Source: Escherichia coli (lineage in GTDB: Bacteria > Pseudomonadota > Gammaproteobacteria > Enterobacterales > Enterobacteriaceae). Taken from it: a stretch of DNA of 42,047 nt. The position numbers and the translations under genes were made by a program. Position 1 is the stretch's first letter. Each line of letters begins with the position of its first letter. Below are positions 5,469 through 23,207 of the stretch, in pieces. The notes below the pieces were generated by a model, which had not been told where the DNA came from, did not search any database, and saw only the letters and a program-made list of their open reading frames with translations. The DNA lies in assembly GCF_051903065.1 (NCBI RefSeq), contig NZ_CP178441.1, one strand, 5' to 3'.

Positions 5469-5822
5469 ATGAGCAAACAGCGTGTTCTTGTCATGAACGG
5501 CCAGCGAGTGCTGCAAAGCGAAGAAGCTGGAAAATGGAAAAATGACAATGTTGATAGAGCTGGCAGCATAAAGCCAGGCATTTACCCGCTTTATCTGTCC
5601 AAGGGGCCGGATAAAGCCAGCTCTTATAATGGGCCGATTTTACACGCAGATAAGCAATCAGTATATCAGCAGGTAGGTAAGCAGATTTTCAAGCATGATC
5701 GCCAAAATTTCGATAAACTGCCAGAAGTAGGTACGGAAAAAAGTATTTCGTATGACCAGACTTCCGGTAAAGCTCAGGTAGCAGCAGCCACAGAGAAGCA
5801 GGGCCGGAAGTTCTCCAGATAG
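5469..5822 (+). CDS. hypothetical protein (kfr/upf-position)
   Basis: GGAG RBS before the ATG. Position corresponds to the kfr/upf54 block of IncP-1. Confidence 0.5.
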   Translation: MSKQRVLVMNGQRVLQSEEAGKWKNDNVDRAGSIKPGIYPLYLSKGPDKASSYNGPILHADKQSVYQQVGKQIFKHDRQNFDKLPEVGTEKSISYDQTSGKAQVAAATEKQGRKFSR

Positions 5823-5843
5823 CGAATAGCGTAGGAGTCCCGG

Positions 5844-6524
5844 ATGAAGCCAACTACCCCATTTAAAAATCCCGGCGCGGTCCGGGATACCTCCTCCCCT
5901 CATCAGCAGCTTGATATTACACCTGATCTTCTCGCAGAGTCGGAAGCCGTAAATATCCAGGAACAGGTACAGCAACTGCATGACGAACAGCAGCAGTTGA
6001 TCAATGACCCTTCCCATTTGCAGGATTCGCAAACTGACGCCGGTAACATTGAGCAGGAATATAAGGATGCGGTAGAGGCGGCAGTAGCGGATAAAGAAAC
6101 GCAGGCAGAAAACCTTGAAAACCGGCTGGAATCGCTGATAGACAAGCAGGAGGCGGTTCTGCAGCAGATGATGAGTCGTCAGCCTGGGTTTTTGGCTCTG
6201 CCCGGCCAGAAGGCAAAATGGAAGTCACAGGTGCAACAACAACAGTCATTGCTGAGTCGCCTGCAGAACCGGCTGGAAACTGTCAAAGAGATTCATGACG
6301 GGATGGGGTTACATGGCCCGCGTATACACGAACTTGCGACGGCCAAAGTGCGGCATGATAAACCAGAGCTTGCCGAAGGATGGGATGAAATGCGGGCTGC
6401 ACAGCGAGCGCATGAGAATCTCATGCGGAAGCAGGCGAAAGAACAGAAAGAAAAGCTACAAAGAGAGCAGGCTCCATCACTAAGTAAAGGGAATGGTCTG
6501 AGCCTTACACGAACAATAACTTGA
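5844..6524 (+). CDS. Q/E-rich coiled-coil protein (Kfr-like position)
   Basis: AGGAG RBS. Highly charged, Gln/Glu-rich sequence consistent with long alpha-helical coiled coil, in the position where IncP-1 plasmids carry kfr genes. Confidence 0.5.
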   Translation: MKPTTPFKNPGAVRDTSSPHQQLDITPDLLAESEAVNIQEQVQQLHDEQQQLINDPSHLQDSQTDAGNIEQEYKDAVEAAVADKETQAENLENRLESLIDKQEAVLQQMMSRQPGFLALPGQKAKWKSQVQQQQSLLSRLQNRLETVKEIHDGMGLHGPRIHELATAKVRHDKPELAEGWDEMRAAQRAHENLMRKQAKEQKEKLQREQAPSLSKGNGLSLTRTIT

Positions 6525-7122: not shown

Positions 7123-7907
7123 CAGATCACCGTTGCTAAATCAAGCTGTTCGAAAATAAGGGCGCGAACCTGTTTCAGACGCTGGCGAACCATAATAGAT
7201 AATGATTTATCTTCAATGGCCTCATCGAAGGTCTTGTAGTTTTCCAGCATGTCGGCAAAGTCCTGGCCGTGTAACTCCTTTTTGAGTGTAGGCAAACGGA
7301 TAAGCGCATCAACCTTGTCTTTATTCATCAGGTACGCTTCTGATTCTTCGAATGGCACTCCCTGATCGGATTCCACCGCGCCCCAATACGGGTTAAGCCA
7401 GACAACAAAACGGGTTTCTGACGGATACTGCTCCACCATGGCCTTGAACCCCTCGACGGTGTAATCATGTGCCTGCCCCCCCACAATCGAGATATGAATG
7501 ACAAGCTGTTTACCCATTTCATAAAGCAGGGCGGGGATTTGCTGGCTAATCATATAACTTGATAACGGAATAAATGACGGAGCGCCGTTATCGATAATAA
7601 CGTCCCTATCACCGGCTTCATCAATCCACTGGATGAGGGTATCCAGTTTGCGCTGATTAATTTCATCACCTTCCATGATGTTCAGCTGTCGGACGTTCAG
7701 TTTTTCATAATTAGAGAATGTAGGATTGAGCGGATCGGTATCGATGCACAGCGGTAGCTCACCTTTGCTAATCTTGTACATTGCCACCAAAGCGGTGCTA
7801 ACGGATTTACCACAACCACCTTTTCCTTGCTGGGCGCTGTGAACAGCATGGCGTACCGGCACTGATTCAGCTTCACTCTGTTTTTTATTTTTGTCTGCAG
7901 TAGGCAT
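7122..7907 (-). CDS. traL: TraL-like P-loop protein
   Basis: Nucleotide-binding motif GKGGCGKSVSTALVA. Position between traK and traM as in RP4. Confidence 0.55.
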   Translation of the reverse strand: MPTADKNKKQSEAESVPVRHAVHSAQQGKGGCGKSVSTALVAMYKISKGELPLCIDTDPLNPTFSNYEKLNVRQLNIMEGDEINQRKLDTLIQWIDEAGDRDVIIDNGAPSFIPLSSYMISQQIPALLYEMGKQLVIHISIVGGQAHDYTVEGFKAMVEQYPSETRFVVWLNPYWGAVESDQGVPFEESEAYLMNKDKVDALIRLPTLKKELHGQDFADMLENYKTFDEAIEDKSLSIMVRQRLKQVRALIFEQLDLATVI

Positions 7908-17121: not shown

Positions 17122-19239
17122 ATGGCAGAAGCTAAAGCGAAAAAACCATTTTATGAGATTGTGGCTGAAAACCTGATAGCCCAGCTTAAAGAGGGGACTG
17201 CTCCATGGCAGAAACCATGGAACCCCGGCGCTCCTGGTGTCGCATTGCCTATGAACCCTACGACGGGTAAACGTTATAAAGGCATTAACGCTATTCACCT
17301 TATGGCGCAGGGTTATAGCGATCAACGTTGGATGACCTATAAGCAGGCGACGGCTGCAAATGCGCAGGTAAGGAGAGGCGAAAAAGGCACGCCGATCCAA
17401 TACTGGAAATTTACTGAGGAACGCATCAAACGCAACGATGATGGTAGCGTTGTGCTCGATAAAGACGATAAACCGGTAAAAGAAACTGTCCAACTGGAGC
17501 GACCGAAGGTATTTAACGCAGTTGTGTTTAATGCGGAGCAGATTGACGGTCTACCGCCGATGGCCGTTCGCCAAGATAAGAGCTGGAACAGTATTGAACG
17601 TGCTGAATCTATTCTCGAAGCCTCTGGCGCGAAAATCTCTCATGACCAGGTTGACCGGGCTTTTTACCGTATGTCTACAGACAGCATTCATTTGCCGCAG
17701 CAGGCTTCCTTTCCAAGTGCTGATCGTTACTATGCCACTGCACTTCATGAATTGAGCCACTGGACAGGTCACGCATCGCGTCTTGATCGTGACCTGTCTC
17801 ATCCTTTTGGAAGTGAAGGTTACGCCAGAGAAGAACTACGCGCAGAGATTGCCAGTATGATCATTGGCGATGAACTGGGGATAGGTCATGACCCTTCCCA
17901 GCATGTTGCCTATGTAAAATCTTGGATTAAAGCCTTACAGGATGATCCGCTGGAAATTTTCCGTGCAGCAGCTGATGCTGAAAAAATCCAGGGGTTCGTG
18001 TTGGGCCTTGAACAACAGAGAATACAGGAACAACCGGTAACTCTGGAAAGAGAGCAGCGCGAAAAAGAGCATAATGAGGTAATGGCTGAGGTACAGCGGC
18101 TGACTAACCCGCAGATTTTCGATGCGGAAACAGCTCAACTCTATCATTTCACATTCATGACACTGGAGCAGACAGCTGAGGAAGCTGGTTACGTTACCTA
18201 TTACAGCCGTGGCACTGGTGAGCTGGGCGAAGAAACTATTCGGGTTAATTACGAAGACAGTAATGGAAATACTATTCCTGTTCATACTGATGTGGTTGGG
18301 CGCGGAAAAGCATTGACATATATCGGTGATGAGCGTGTCCCCGGAACGGGATTTTCATCCGATAATGAATGGCAAAGCAATGCTCTTAAAACCGCTTTCG
18401 CCAGCATGGATAACAACCTAACTTTAGTCGCTAAAAAAGTTCATAGTCAGATTGAAAATATCAGTGGAGACCCGCGAGAGTTACCGCAGGATGTTAAGTT
18501 TCCTAAAAACTGGTGGCCTAATTCCAGTTTTCTGGCGTCGACCCCAAGTGTGGAGAACTCAAAAGCAGCTGCAGAGGCTGATATGACCACTAAAACTGAA
18601 ACGTCTATTACATCAGCGCAGCAGCGCCAGTATCGTGCAGAGAAATTTATTCTTTCGAATCTCGATAGTGGTCTTTCTAAGCACGTTCAGAATATGAACC
18701 GTCGCCAGCTTACGTTGTCACGAAACGTTCTCTATGATGCTCAAAATAGCAATCAGGATAGTGATTTTTGGCAGCGTAACAAGGAATTTCATTCTTCGTT
18801 CAGTCAAAACTGGAATGAGGCTCAGGACAAGATCAAGAGCGCATACCGTGAGATTGATTTTGCATTATCACTTCTACCAGAGCCGAAATATAACATTGTG
18901 GAAAATCCTGGTCAGAATGAGCATGTGAATATAATCATGCAGACCAACAGTGCAGTTAAGGCGCTGGCCGCTGTTAACGAAGGGGATAATCGTTCAATTT
19001 ATGACTCACGTCTCATCAATAACGGTAAGGTCGATCTGAATGACCTGCAGAACAATTTTTATCAAACACTTGAAGCAGAAAAAGCAGCCTTAAAGCAAGG
19101 TATTATCAAGCCTGATGATGAGATTAGCGTGCTCCCACCAAGAGAAGCACAGGAATGGTATCAAGACCGTGTTGAAGGCTTGACGTATAGGAAATTGAAA
19201 AACCAGTCGATACCATTGTCCACGCCTTATGCCACGTGA
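17122..19239 (+). CDS. ardC: ArdC-like antirestriction protein (N-terminal ssDNA-binding domain plus HExxH metalloprotease) with a roughly 400-aa C-terminal extension
   Basis: N-terminal ...APWQKPW... ArdC-type segment and HExxH motif ALHELSHWTGH. Total length 705 aa versus about 300 aa for canonical ArdC. Confidence 0.7.
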   Translation: MAEAKAKKPFYEIVAENLIAQLKEGTAPWQKPWNPGAPGVALPMNPTTGKRYKGINAIHLMAQGYSDQRWMTYKQATAANAQVRRGEKGTPIQYWKFTEERIKRNDDGSVVLDKDDKPVKETVQLERPKVFNAVVFNAEQIDGLPPMAVRQDKSWNSIERAESILEASGAKISHDQVDRAFYRMSTDSIHLPQQASFPSADRYYATALHELSHWTGHASRLDRDLSHPFGSEGYAREELRAEIASMIIGDELGIGHDPSQHVAYVKSWIKALQDDPLEIFRAAADAEKIQGFVLGLEQQRIQEQPVTLEREQREKEHNEVMAEVQRLTNPQIFDAETAQLYHFTFMTLEQTAEEAGYVTYYSRGTGELGEETIRVNYEDSNGNTIPVHTDVVGRGKALTYIGDERVPGTGFSSDNEWQSNALKTAFASMDNNLTLVAKKVHSQIENISGDPRELPQDVKFPKNWWPNSSFLASTPSVENSKAAAEADMTTKTETSITSAQQRQYRAEKFILSNLDSGLSKHVQNMNRRQLTLSRNVLYDAQNSNQDSDFWQRNKEFHSSFSQNWNEAQDKIKSAYREIDFALSLLPEPKYNIVENPGQNEHVNIIMQTNSAVKALAAVNEGDNRSIYDSRLINNGKVDLNDLQNNFYQTLEAEKAALKQGIIKPDDEISVLPPREAQEWYQDRVEGLTYRKLKNQSIPLSTPYAT

Positions 19240-19503
19240 GCCTTTCTGCTTTTCCCACCACTCCGGTGGTTTCCCTCTCTGTATGGTCGATTTTTATACC
19301 GTAACAGGCTGTTTTTTATACTTTCACCGATTCCCGGGCACACTTAGCCTGTGTCAGGCCGGCATATACCTCAGTAGACTGATATCCCGCGCGTTTTTCT
19401 TCAGCCCTGATACATTCAGCCCCGCAATGGCCCGGCGGTATACCATCCGGCAGCCACACAGCACGCATTCGAACGGGTCACGACTCAGGAACTGTTTCAC
19501 CAT

Positions 19504-21291
19504 TTGTGCATAGCACACTTTCGCCACTGGTTCATGGAGGACGCTGACAGCCCGGATGAACTGAAAAGCGCTCTGGATGCGCTTGGCCCAGAACCGGGAG
19601 ATAATGAGGCTGTTTTCCTTGGTGAAGATGGAGGGCGAATTCTTCCAGAATTCAGTCTGAACGTTACGCAGGAAAATACTCCAATCAATGTCCCCTACAA
19701 AGAACGCAATGAAGCTAAAGCGCTTGGGGCAAAATGGGATCGAACCGAACAGACCTGGTTTGTACCAAAAGGTGTATCTCTGGATAAATTTGCAAAATGG
19801 GTTGGTGGGCCAACTGCAGAAAACAATTCATCTGTCGTATCTGTGAAAGAAGTAACGCCAAAAGTGGGTGAGCGTCAGAATCTGGCTGTCCCTTATAAAG
19901 ACCGCGCAGAAGCTAAAGCAGCTGGTGCTAAATGGGACAAAGAGAAAAAAACTTGGTATGCCGAAGCTGGGGCAGATATGCAAAAACTGGCGAAGTGGAA
20001 ACCGGAAAATGTGGTGATCGAACAGTCACCGGCCATGACGCTAAAGGAGGAAGTAGAAACCGCGCTGAAAGATATTGGGTGCATCCTTGATGCCGATACT
20101 GACAAAGGACAGAAACATCCAATTATGGATGGTAAGAAGCATCGGATCACGGTAGAGGGAGACAAGAAAGGGGAAAAGTCAGGTTTTTATATCATCTATA
20201 CTGACGGCCATCCTGCGGGCTTCATGCAGAACAACCGCACCAAAGAAGAGTTACGTTGGTCTTCCAAGGGAAATGTGATGTCCGACGAAGAAAAAGCGCT
20301 CCTGCGGGCGCAGGCTGCTCAGAAACAGGCCGAAAAAGCGGCACAGCAGCAAAAAGACCATGAGTCCTCTGCAAAGCGTGTTCAAAAGCAGCTCGCTAAA
20401 CTCAATGAACCTCAGCAGCAAACTGCTTACCTGAAGAAGAAAGGGCTGCAGGTACATAAAGGTGTGTTCACTGATAAGGACGGACAGAAAACCTTTATTC
20501 CTGCTTATGATGTCCATGGTAAGCAATGGACTATGCAGTACATCAACGAGGACGGCACAAAACGTTTTGCCAAAAATGCTCGCAAAGAGGGATGTTTCCA
20601 TGTCATTGGCGGGCTGGATGCGCTTAAAAAATCTCCGGTGTTGATTGTGGCCGAAGGTTACGCAACGGCAGGGAGCATCACAGAGGCTACTAATATACCA
20701 ACGGTCGCCGCCTTCGATTCAGGTAATCTGGAATCTGTCGCGAAAACGCTTAAAGAAGCCTACCCCGATAAGCCAATCATCATTGCCGGTGATGATGATA
20801 TTTCTCAGTCATGCAAAATGAAGGTGAAGGATAAAGCCAGTGTAAACGTCGGCAGGGAAAAAGCGCTGGAAACAGCGAAAGCTGTCGGCGGTGTGGCTGT
20901 GTTTCCAGTTTTTGCTAAAGGTGAATTACCTGGGAAAGACGAACTCAGCCAGATTAAACCGGCGGCGTATCTTGCACACCAGACCGCCTCGCGCAAACTG
21001 GAGGCCCATACGAGCGGTGATAAGCCACTCTCGGATGCCGAAGTGAAGGTTCTGCAGGCAGCACAGCTATCGGAAAAGCAGCTTGATATTATTCGCCGCG
21101 CTGATCGTTACACTGACTTTAACGATCTGGCCGTAAATAGTTCTCTTGGCCGGGAAGGTGTGGCGATGCAGTTGAAAGCCGTCATTGCTGACCAGCTGAA
21201 TAAAAAACAGCAGCAGTCACAGGTCCAGATCGAAGAGAAGAAACTCGTTCAGGAAAAAGAGAAAAAACGGACCATTCGCCACGCTATGTAA
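19504..21291 (+). CDS. traC: TraC-like DNA primase (Toprim domain); start uncertain (alternative ATG at 19534)
   Basis: Toprim segment VLIVAEGYATAGS...IIIAGDDD. Two N-terminal repeats of the ...AK..GAKWD...K.W motif. Confidence 0.75.
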   Translation: MCIAHFRHWFMEDADSPDELKSALDALGPEPGDNEAVFLGEDGGRILPEFSLNVTQENTPINVPYKERNEAKALGAKWDRTEQTWFVPKGVSLDKFAKWVGGPTAENNSSVVSVKEVTPKVGERQNLAVPYKDRAEAKAAGAKWDKEKKTWYAEAGADMQKLAKWKPENVVIEQSPAMTLKEEVETALKDIGCILDADTDKGQKHPIMDGKKHRITVEGDKKGEKSGFYIIYTDGHPAGFMQNNRTKEELRWSSKGNVMSDEEKALLRAQAAQKQAEKAAQQQKDHESSAKRVQKQLAKLNEPQQQTAYLKKKGLQVHKGVFTDKDGQKTFIPAYDVHGKQWTMQYINEDGTKRFAKNARKEGCFHVIGGLDALKKSPVLIVAEGYATAGSITEATNIPTVAAFDSGNLESVAKTLKEAYPDKPIIIAGDDDISQSCKMKVKDKASVNVGREKALETAKAVGGVAVFPVFAKGELPGKDELSQIKPAAYLAHQTASRKLEAHTSGDKPLSDAEVKVLQAAQLSEKQLDIIRRADRYTDFNDLAVNSSLGREGVAMQLKAVIADQLNKKQQQSQVQIEEKKLVQEKEKKRTIRHAM

Positions 21292-21386
21292 GATGTTCTG
21301 ACTCTGGCCTGCCTGCGGGCCAGTAAATTGCGCTCGCTTTAATGGTAAAATTAAATGCATCAAAAGATTACTTTTAAGGACAGAAA

Positions 21387-21878
21387 ATGAAAAAGATATA
21401 TACCGCAGCGTTTTTATTAATTTTTACCCCTTTAACTTATGCCACCGGATTTCCATGTGCTGGCTGTGGAATTGTTGATAATATGATAAAAGGAAAGGCT
21501 GATGAAACACCAATAATGGTGATGCTAGATACTCCGATTGAAAAAAATGACATTACGCCGAAGGAAATAAACTTAATATCACACGACGATAAATGTCTTT
21601 ACTCTGGTGTACTTACACAGACTCTTTCGAAAAATAAAGACAGCCGTATTATTGATGTCAATAAAAAGGTTTGCGGCTCGAATACTGAAAAGGTGTCTTA
21701 CTCCGTTTTGAGCATTAGTTCCAGCGAGCAATACAGCAAAGGCACACCGCTAAAGCTGTATCATGTCGCCGTAATGACTTCGGCAGGTCCGTTGTTCAGC
21801 GCTGATGTAATGAGCGAAATGATTAAAGATATTGCAGATGCAGTAGAACAGGCTAAGGCAAAAGGACTGACTAAGTGA
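21387..21878 (+). CDS. secreted/periplasmic hypothetical protein
   Basis: N-terminal signal peptide MKKIYTAAFLLIFTPLTYA. AT-rich. RBS AAGGA. Confidence 0.55.
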   Translation: MKKIYTAAFLLIFTPLTYATGFPCAGCGIVDNMIKGKADETPIMVMLDTPIEKNDITPKEINLISHDDKCLYSGVLTQTLSKNKDSRIIDVNKKVCGSNTEKVSYSVLSISSSEQYSKGTPLKLYHVAVMTSAGPLFSADVMSEMIKDIADAVEQAKAKGLTK

Positions 21879-22090
21879 GTCATTCAGATAAAAGGTCCGA
21901 GTTTTTGTATATGTTCCGGCGTTGCAGAACGATAGATACAGTTGAACGCCTTTATGAACATAAGCGGGACATTGTTTCTTCTGAACATCTTAGCGATTTT
22001 CTGAGTGCTTATGATCATCGCAAGGCAGAAATTTATCATGGAAAAATCTGGGATAAGGTTCCTGCGTCTGCCTGGCGGAATGTGAAATAA
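21875..22090 (+). CDS. hypothetical protein (71 aa), coupled to the upstream secreted protein gene
   Basis: GTGA start/stop overlap. Followed by a strong hairpin terminator. Confidence 0.4.
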   Translation: MSHSDKRSEFLYMFRRCRTIDTVERLYEHKRDIVSSEHLSDFLSAYDHRKAEIYHGKIWDKVPASAWRNVK

Positions 22091-22120
22091 AACAGCCGGG
22101 TAAACCCCGGCTGTTGTTAA
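22091..22120. terminator. bidirectional terminator hairpin (AACAGCCGGG-TAAAC-CCCGGCTGTT) between convergent operons
   Basis: 10-bp perfect stem with T-rich and A-rich flanks. Confidence 0.65.
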
Positions 22121-22122
22121 TT

Positions 22123-22135
22123 TTTAGCGGCTAAA
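22123..22135. promoter_or_regulatory. KorB-type operator TTTAGCGGCTAAA
   Basis: Perfect OB consensus between convergent genes. Confidence 0.55.
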
Positions 22136-22146
22136 ATAAATGAACG

Positions 22147-23133
22147 TTAATCATCATGGTCCAAAGGAGCTGAGTTTTTAATAGCTTCAATTTCATCAAG
22201 CAATCTTTTATTACGCTTTATTGCATCTTCAATGCGACGAATCAGCGCCTCATCACCTTTCCAGTAATTAAATTTACCTCTTTGACTTTTATCCCAAATA
22301 TCCTCCCACCACATGCTTTCATTTACACGATAATCCTTGAGAAGCATCAGTGGATAGGCTTGTTCCTCTTCTCTGATTTGCTTATAAGCAGATCGCGGCA
22401 TAAGGTAGCCTTTGACGTTTACATCAAGTTTGACAAAACTCTTGTACAGCGCCCGAAGAGTGACAAAAAAATCAGCCAAATCAGACTCGCCACCGGCTCC
22501 AATGACTTCACTTACGTGTAGGTTTGTCCAGAACGCATCAACATACCGTGTATTTTCAAACTCACGGAGTATCAGAAGTGCTCCTATATCACTATCTTCC
22601 CTTAGCAGCCTGATGTCTGTGACTTTATTACCATCACTATCAGGTCTGAGAAGGTGCTTAACAGCAGCCCGGCCTGTGCCGTGCATTCTGACGCCTGAGT
22701 TCCATTCATACACATCCCCCTCACCGTGAATTAACCAGTCGGCGCGACAACCAAATAACTTGCTTAACCGCTGCAGCTCAGTGAAGGAAGGGAGTACGTC
22801 ACCACTGAACCAGTTGGCGACAAGGCCAAGATCTTCAATCCCCAGCTCTACGGCCACATTGGACGGCACAAGAGGTTTGTAGTTACGGAATTGGTTGGTT
22901 TTCCGCAGAACTGTATTGAGGCGGCCAGACACTTCCTGCCGGTATAGTTCTTCTCCAGAATAAACCTGCTCAGGAGGTGCTATCCATTTCAACAGAGCAT
23001 AGCGGGCCTCACCTTCGACCGAACGTTGATTTTCGTTTGCTAACTGTTCTAGGGCGAAATATGCATCGTCCGGGAAATTTCTGACCTGAAATTTTTTCAT
23101 AACGCACCATTTTGGGAGAATGTGTGGCTTCAT
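22147..23133 (-). CDS. RHH (Arc/CopG-like) plus XRE-HTH-like protein with a large unknown C-terminal domain; start may be the internal ATG at 23100
   Basis: N-terminus KKFQVRNFPDDAYFALEQLANENQRSVEGEARYAL is RHH-like. A mid segment ...LQRLSKLFGCRADWLIHGEG is HTH-like. Downstream of a KorC-operator promoter region. Confidence 0.55.
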   Translation of the reverse strand: MKPHILPKWCVMKKFQVRNFPDDAYFALEQLANENQRSVEGEARYALLKWIAPPEQVYSGEELYRQEVSGRLNTVLRKTNQFRNYKPLVPSNVAVELGIEDLGLVANWFSGDVLPSFTELQRLSKLFGCRADWLIHGEGDVYEWNSGVRMHGTGRAAVKHLLRPDSDGNKVTDIRLLREDSDIGALLILREFENTRYVDAFWTNLHVSEVIGAGGESDLADFFVTLRALYKSFVKLDVNVKGYLMPRSAYKQIREEEQAYPLMLLKDYRVNESMWWEDIWDKSQRGKFNYWKGDEALIRRIEDAIKRNKRLLDEIEAIKNSAPLDHDD

Positions 23134-23207
23134 AATGAGGGCGGTTTGTCTTCATTGAAAGTTTCAAATTAATTCTATATGTATCTATTTGTTTTCAATA
23201 AGATCTA

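Follow-up and report, generated by a model that had tools for sequence, protein, structure and literature searches.

Directly upstream of a terminator, and downstream from the primase gene traC, two overlapping genes are found on the plus strand of the plasmid analyzed here. All positions refer to the window, by which we mean the whole stretch of 42,047 nucleotides of Escherichia coli DNA (contig NZ_CP178441.1) covered by the analysis. The first gene is referred to as orf163 and the second as hha, and the features of the locus are the following:

21304-21323, plus strand: small hairpin CTGGCC-N8-GGCCAG directly 3' of the traC stop codon, with no T-run (read from the sequence)
21376-21380, plus strand: Shine-Dalgarno sequence AAGGA of orf163, 6 nt 5' of the ATG (from the sequence)
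21387-21878, plus strand: orf163, ATG start, 163 aa, predicted exported orphan protein
21387-21443, plus strand: predicted Sec-type signal peptide MKKIYTAAFLLIFTPLTYA, codons 1-19 of orf163, with a predicted signal peptidase I cut after T-Y-A (from heuristic features and the conserved layout)
21862-21866, plus strand: Shine-Dalgarno sequence AAGGA of hha, within the 3' end of orf163 (from the sequence)
21875-21878, plus strand: start/stop overlap GTGA of 4 nt, the coupling junction (sequence AAGTGA)
21875-22090, plus strand: hha-like gene, GTG start, 71 aa, Hha/YmoA family
22091-22125, both strands: bidirectional intrinsic terminator common to hha and a convergent 328-aa gene, 10-bp stem with 7 GC pairs and T-tails on both strands

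An initial annotation of the locus had described a 163-aa frame and a coupled 71-aa frame, and both are indeed present, sharing the four nucleotides GTGA and with the Shine-Dalgarno sequence of the second gene located inside the first. An overlap of the NTGA type is kept in the six lineages examined, down to amino-acid identities of 38-40% for orf163 and 61% for Hha. The metagenomic IncP-like contig L004 combines an upstream protein ~38-40% identical to orf163 with a 61% identical Hha and the junction TTGA, and an overlap of 4 nt was also called in the Pantoea plasmid contigs L009-L011. The AAGGA sequence of hha is kept in five lineages, as read from the junction strings. Comparison with four plasmid lineages gave dN/dS values of 0.14-0.24 for orf163 and 0.08-0.25 for hha. 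Since these values are low and the two genes with their NTGA overlap are found again in distant lineages, it is clear that both genes are under purifying selection and are real genes rather than chance ORFs.

The pair was also said to be AT-rich, which is true but modest, the GC content being 39.8% against 45.4% for the window, at the 5th percentile of 704-nt windows. Its assignment to the end of the Tra1 operon was borne out as well, as the two genes come after the ArdC-primase gene (traC) and are followed by a hairpin terminator with a T tail. This terminator is conserved in the sister plasmid pYDC107_41, and a similar one is present in L004. No sigma-70-like promoter was found between 21100 and 22300 in a consensus scan, which a non-consensus promoter would escape. 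The small hairpin directly after traC was not flagged by the terminator scan, and an equivalent hairpin, CTGGCCC-N4-GGGCCAG, follows traC in the distant L004 (~7445-7462), where the flanking proteins are only ~40-60% identical. It might serve in RNA processing or stability, or as a site to which a protein binds.

The window comprises nearly the whole of a conjugative plasmid of the IncP clade II / PTU-P2 lineage, a non-canonical branch of IncP that is restricted to Enterobacterales and known as clade II (PMC9499019) or PTU-P2 (PMC12728208). Plasmids of this branch are carriers of blaKPC-2, blaIMP, and mcr-1 in clinical Enterobacterales, they have in common “hypothetical genes of unknown function”, and compared with classical IncP-1 they were recently shown to have a higher transfer in the gut (PMC12728208). 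Positions 19531-23200 are 100% identical to 41.7-kb plasmids from Salmonella, E. coli, and Shigella, such as pCFSA664-2, which are typed MOBP/MPF_T. The gene order in pCFSA664-2 is korA/incC/korB-kfr, traM-L-K, oriT, traJ-traI-traG-traF, topoisomerase III, and traD, continuing with a 1,272-aa ArdC-metallopeptidase-primase (traC), two small genes, a convergent gene and, farther on, the trb operon including trbK. The same two-gene module is present at 87-88% amino-acid identity in pKPC2_sg2, a pKPC2 type plasmid of clade II / PTU-P2. In the pKPC2-type contigs L005-L008, and in the more distant L004, a 154-aa KfrB-domain gene, once annotated “TraB”, separates traC from orf163; the lineage of the window has no such gene at this position and carries KfrB-domain and KfrC genes elsewhere (~5469-6524). 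The convergent gene on the other side of the module (22147-23133, minus strand) encodes a 328-aa protein that has a FitA-like ribbon-helix-helix at its N-terminus and an HTH_3 domain, the large C-terminal remainder being uncharacterised, and a different, shorter gene (~150 aa) occupies this site in pKPC2-type plasmids.

Among ~110 PLSDB plasmids with this backbone, 86-87 carry the module, while ~23 are without it and are still typed conjugative. In every case found, that is in the 86-87 PLSDB plasmids and in two more distant lineages, orf163 is linked to the transfer operon and to hha. In sister plasmids devoid of the module, such as pYDC107_41, its place is taken by a gene for an unrelated 124-aa multi-pass membrane protein with no family assignment. 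When positions 3000-3520 of L002 (pYDC107_41) are compared with the corresponding positions 21292-22146 of the window, the bodies of orf163 and hha are seen to be replaced, and what is kept is ~65 nt from the 3' end of orf163, including the Shine-Dalgarno sequence and the GTG junction, and ~20 nt from the 3' end of hha together with the terminator. The replacement gene reuses the ribosome binding site and the GTG start of hha, its product begins with MSHS like Hha, and the swap is a precise cassette exchange at the coupling junction. In some plasmids or assemblies orf163 is frameshifted, truncated, or internally deleted (P0008, P0009, and P0011, in the last of which the signal peptide is fused to the C-terminal helix), which suggests an occasional natural loss of function. 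Since sister plasmids have replaced the module yet are typed conjugative, and since broken variants of orf163 exist, the module is accessory and dispensable, and not needed for transfer as such.

The 71-aa product matches the Pfam family HHA (PF05321) with 65.8 bits (cut-off 25, E 4e-18) over profile positions 3-57 of 57. The matches among PDB sequences are to Hha, the Hha-H-NS complex, YmoA, and Cnu, with 4icg_C, 1jw2_A, and 2k5s_A aligning to residues 7-71 at E-values of 1e-13 to 1e-14. RefSeq/PGAP annotates hha as a gene of 59 aa starting from an internal ATG at 21911 (L001 22381). Because the homology to Hha/YmoA begins at residue 7 and the N-terminus (the first 12 residues of the 71-aa frame) is conserved across lineages, we take the GTG start and the 71-aa form to be correct and the 59-aa call to be too short. 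Judged from its sequence, the protein is a cytoplasmic H-NS co-regulator of the Hha/YmoA family without signal peptide. The term “secreted protein operon” used in the initial annotation is thus appropriate for orf163 with its signal peptide, but has to be abandoned for the second gene, whose product the PF05321 score assigns to a cytoplasmic family. The NCBIfam models for Hha (NF008191, 65.4 against a cut-off of 90) and YdgT (NF007703, 32.2 against 101) were not reached, and the protein appears to be a divergent plasmid Hha paralogue rather than an equivalog of Hha or YdgT. Outside the lineage the nearest plasmid Hha is 52% identical and located on an IncN plasmid, and most others are 35-45% identical. 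As this closest relative comes after a restriction endonuclease gene and not after a gene for a secreted protein, the pairing of an exported protein with hha is specific to this IncP lineage.

The residue D48 of Hha is essential for H-NS binding (PMC4519777) and aligns with D47 of the 71-aa product. The equivalents of E25, C18, R16, R17, K32, and R50 of Hha are kept as well, and R14 is changed to Met. By analogy, the plasmid Hha would be expected to bind H-NS. A tblastn search with approximate query sequences gave no H-NS or TomB gene in the window, so the plasmid Hha, with no H-NS encoded on the same plasmid, would have to work together with H-NS/StpA of the host. Complexes of H-NS and Hha silence AT-rich DNA that was acquired horizontally, they repress R27 conjugation, and the Hha family is restricted to Enterobacteriaceae (PMC2686267). 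A silencer of the Hha type makes sense only in enterobacterial hosts, which fits the narrowed host range of IncP clade II. In its length of 71 aa and its full-length HHA match the protein resembles the known family (E. coli Hha, Yersinia YmoA, Cnu/YdgT, R27 Hha, and R100 RmoA), it shares with Hha the Asp used for H-NS binding, Cys18, and basic residues (PMC4519777), and as in the case of R27 Hha the gene is borne on an enterobacterial conjugative plasmid (PMC2686267). It differs from the family in that the gene ends an IncP Tra1 operon, that the upstream gene it overlaps encodes an exported protein and is not tomB, and that it has no H-NS partner on the plasmid. The hha half of the module is in other words known biology in a new plasmid context.

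The other half, orf163, belongs to a tiny family. The signal peptide that had been attributed to it is recognized from the n/h/c layout on heuristic grounds: an MKK n-region (+2), a hydrophobic core with Kyte-Doolittle values of 2.1-2.75 (11-residue mean 2.1), and T-Y-A before the cut, which is followed by TG. This layout and the conserved Y-A are kept in the homologs P0010 and P0013, which are only 39% identical, and we predict from these features that orf163 is exported via Sec, leaving a mature protein of ~144 aa. Searches in Pfam, NCBIfam, PADLOC, and PHROGs yielded no meaningful match for orf163, and comparison with PDB sequences gave only noise (azurin and adenylate kinase, E>0.07). The gene is present in 87 PLSDB plasmids, all copies being at least 80% identical. 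A word-indexed search of 5.8 billion proteins returned only relatives of at least 72% identity, and when 1.84 billion representatives were searched exhaustively with an HMM, one further real relative was gained, the distant cluster P0010, to which P0013 is related. P0012 (E 3e-4), a protein with rhodanese repeats, was judged spurious as a relative, since four short repeats of it matched a segment of low information. In the literature searched nothing was found about orf163, nor about an hha gene of IncP clade II plasmids. The protein is an uncharacterised orphan.

The AlphaFold2 models, although built for this family from shallow alignments of only 6-8 sequences, predict a moderately confident beta-barrel core with pLDDT values of 80-88 for orf163 and 86-92 for P0010, and for P0010 all five models score 70-72. 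In the orf163 model the barrel spans residues ~40-128 and is followed by an amphipathic C-terminal helix at ~139-158, while residues 1-39 have pLDDT values below 50. The invariant Cys70 and Cys96 are cross-strand partners in a predicted hairpin (strands 70-81 and 84-96), and according to the model they would be expected to form a disulfide in the periplasm. When the orf163 model was compared with known structures using Foldseek, the relatives found were VirB10 barrels, with weak E-values (best 6e-3) and TM scores of 0.30-0.44, and only ~90-110 of the ~190 residues of the VirB10 C-terminal domain were matched. The model therefore suggests a beta-barrel fold resembling the C-terminal domain of VirB10, a prediction that we found to be both reproducible and unexpected. 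The comparators for this domain were TraF of pKM101 (3jqo), TrwE (7o3j), Xanthomonas VirB10 (6gyb), TraB of F (7okn), ComB10 (2bhv), CagY, and DotG.

In several respects orf163 is nevertheless unlike VirB10/TrbI. With PF03743, or with any Pfam family, no match was obtained for orf163, P0010, or P0013 (E<=0.1 to 1), a BLASTP comparison of orf163 with TrbI of the same plasmid gave an E-value of 56, and hhalign against a 120-sequence profile of the TrbI C-terminal domain gave a probability of 0.2%, both profiles being shallow. The mature protein of ~144 aa compares with 380-460 aa or more for VirB10/TrbI, and ahead of the barrel it has only a 19-residue signal peptide of the cleavable type and a linker of ~20 residues, where VirB10/TrbI has a cytoplasmic segment, a membrane anchor, and a proline-rich arm. 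DSSP analysis of the orf163 and P0010 models showed no helix pair inside the barrel corresponding to the VirB10 antenna, a helix-loop-helix insertion that makes the outer-membrane pore, and one C-terminal helix only. A normal full-length TrbI is encoded elsewhere on the plasmid. Because there is no sequence match, no N-terminal anchor or proline-rich arm, and no visible antenna helix pair, orf163 does not appear to be a member of the VirB10/TrbI family and can best be called an exported protein that stands alone and whose predicted fold is VirB10-barrel-like. The literature searched has no description of a soluble VirB10-barrel protein standing alone.

Our preferred explanation, to which we would give an even chance of being right, is that the two genes form a dispensable accessory operon at the distal end of Tra1, combining a plasmid Hha that acts on host H-NS with a periplasmic VirB10-barrel-like factor that possibly acts on the type IV secretion system (T4SS). 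Transcription of orf163-hha would most likely read through from traC and stop at the 22091-22125 hairpin, and the two genes would be translated as a coupled unit. By analogy with the chromosomal and R27 Hha proteins, the plasmid Hha would bind the N-terminal domain of host H-NS/StpA via its Asp D47 (Hha D48) and strengthen the silencing of AT-rich acquired DNA, including the plasmid and possibly its transfer genes, which would tune conjugation and lower the cost of the plasmid. The orf163 protein would leave the cytoplasm via Sec and be set free in the periplasm, with a Cys70-Cys96 bond clamping a beta-hairpin of the VirB10-like barrel. There it may dock on, or compete for partners of, the outer-membrane core complex made of TrbH, TrbG, and TrbI (VirB7, VirB9, and VirB10, respectively), belonging to its own plasmid or to one that is co-resident or incoming, and it would modulate the assembly or activity of the channel rather than form a channel itself. 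The interaction with the secretion machinery is something we infer, and the T4SS is put forward as the most likely target because the sole structural relatives of orf163 are T4SS core barrels and because the gene occurs only in transfer operons. Several findings count against this explanation, namely the lack of sequence homology to TrbI/VirB10, the shallow models, the weak Foldseek statistics, the dispensability of the module, and the insertion that interrupts traC in the window and could lower expression by read-through; in addition, the NCBIfam cut-off for Hha was missed, so that binding of H-NS by this divergent paralogue is assumed. The explanation also leaves the coupling of a periplasmic protein with a nucleoid protein without a reason. 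A more specific version of it, which we hold to be rather improbable, would make orf163 a soluble periplasmic “mini-VirB10” that inserts into, caps, or titrates the T4SS outer-membrane core complex of its own plasmid or of a rival and is produced one-to-one with the plasmid Hha, giving a two-level brake or tuner of conjugation that works in the envelope and in transcription.

The same properties of orf163 can be read in other ways. The likeness of fold may be coincidental or a modelling artefact, in which case orf163 would be a lineage-specific periplasmic cargo protein (e.g. a stress, adhesion, or niche factor) with no link to the T4SS. This possibility we find somewhat doubtful but worth taking seriously, as it is in agreement with the missing sequence homology to VirB10, the shallow alignments behind the models, the weak Foldseek statistics, the dispensability of the module, and the tiny family; the points already named in support of the T4SS as target speak for our preferred explanation. 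Roles in entry or surface exclusion or in fertility inhibition, together with the coupled 71-aa partner, were originally suggested for the secreted protein, as was a function in periplasmic immunity, and the idea of exclusion or fertility inhibition overlaps with our preferred explanation. It is attractive that orf163 is predicted to be exported and is encoded in a transfer operon, that a VirB10-like barrel could plausibly bind parts of a competitor's secretion system, and that the module varies among sister plasmids, as genes for exclusion or competition often do. Like the IncP entry-exclusion lipoprotein TrbK, orf163 is small, predicted to be exported, and encoded in an IncP transfer region, but TrbK has ~57-69 aa and is encoded in the Tra2/trb operon, and the plasmid thus already has an entry-exclusion gene in trbK. 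Moreover, orf163 shows no similarity to TrbK or other known proteins of these kinds (no Pfam, NCBIfam, or PADLOC matches), it has no membrane anchor left after the predicted cleavage, conjugative sister plasmids do altogether without the module, and the 71-aa partner is a cytoplasmic Hha and not an envelope protein. We also considered a lipoprotein of the TrbK type directly and rejected it: no lipobox was found (criterion [LVI][ASTVI][GAS]C where the signal peptide ends), Cys24 following G-F-P and Cys27 following C-A-G/S/T, and both cysteines are absent in P0010 and P0013. All in all, we consider a role in exclusion or fertility inhibition unlikely.

These two cysteines belong to a CxxC motif (PCAGC) at residues 24-27, which does not vary among the lineages of E. 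coli, Salmonella, and Klebsiella and could point to a periplasmic thiol-disulfide oxidoreductase. However, P0010 and P0013 lack the motif and keep everything else, the motif is placed in the unstructured linker of low confidence, and no thioredoxin fold or family match was seen, which makes such a function very improbable. We think just as little of a toxin-antitoxin pair in which orf163 would neutralise a toxic Hha in the manner of TomB. The TomB(YbaJ)-Hha operon also has two genes with the partner upstream and hha distal, and the equivalent of Cys18, the residue targeted by TomB, is conserved (PMC5133643). On the other hand, with a signal peptide and a cysteine pair of the disulfide type orf163 should leave the cytoplasm, its predicted structure is all-beta with one helix, unrelated to TomB, and the sister plasmid that replaced both genes left no orphan toxin behind. 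A TomB-like identity of orf163 was rejected in the searches as well, with no match to Pfam YbaJ/TomB and, using an approximate TomB query in tblastn against the window, only noise at E>=1 with nothing at the orf163 locus.

Coming back to our preferred explanation of an accessory operon acting through Hha and on the T4SS, orf163-hha is a lineage-specific element among the hypothetical genes of PTU-P2 and now has concrete assignments that can be tested. If orf163 truly binds to the T4SS, it would represent a novel type of conjugation modulator and might offer a means of blocking the spread of plasmids, and if the “mini-VirB10” brake should be true, it might add to the transfer advantage in the gut or under anaerobic conditions, or to the competitive behaviour, of PTU-P2 resistance plasmids. 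If it does not bind, what is left is a routine plasmid hha and an orphan periplasmic protein. The value of the present analysis accordingly lies in a lead that can be tested, in a plasmid lineage of clinical importance, and not in the demonstration of a new mechanism.

The gene preceding the module also differs between the window and its relatives. In pCFSA664-2 and pYDC107_41 traC is a single ORF of 1,272 aa, and in the window a 351-bp insertion (~19183-19533) splits this ArdC-primase gene into ORFs of 705 and 595 aa. The inserted sequence is present in 2,935 PLSDB plasmids, in 1,486 of them with at least 99% identity and often in 3-6 copies, and it sometimes falls under the annotation “IS91 family transposase”. 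It lies directly after CTTG, a target of the IS91 family, and its reverse strand has a short ORF that may be the remnant of a transposase. The insert looks like a miniature mobile element derived from IS91; it may influence how the primase domain and the downstream module are expressed, and read-through into the latter could be reduced.
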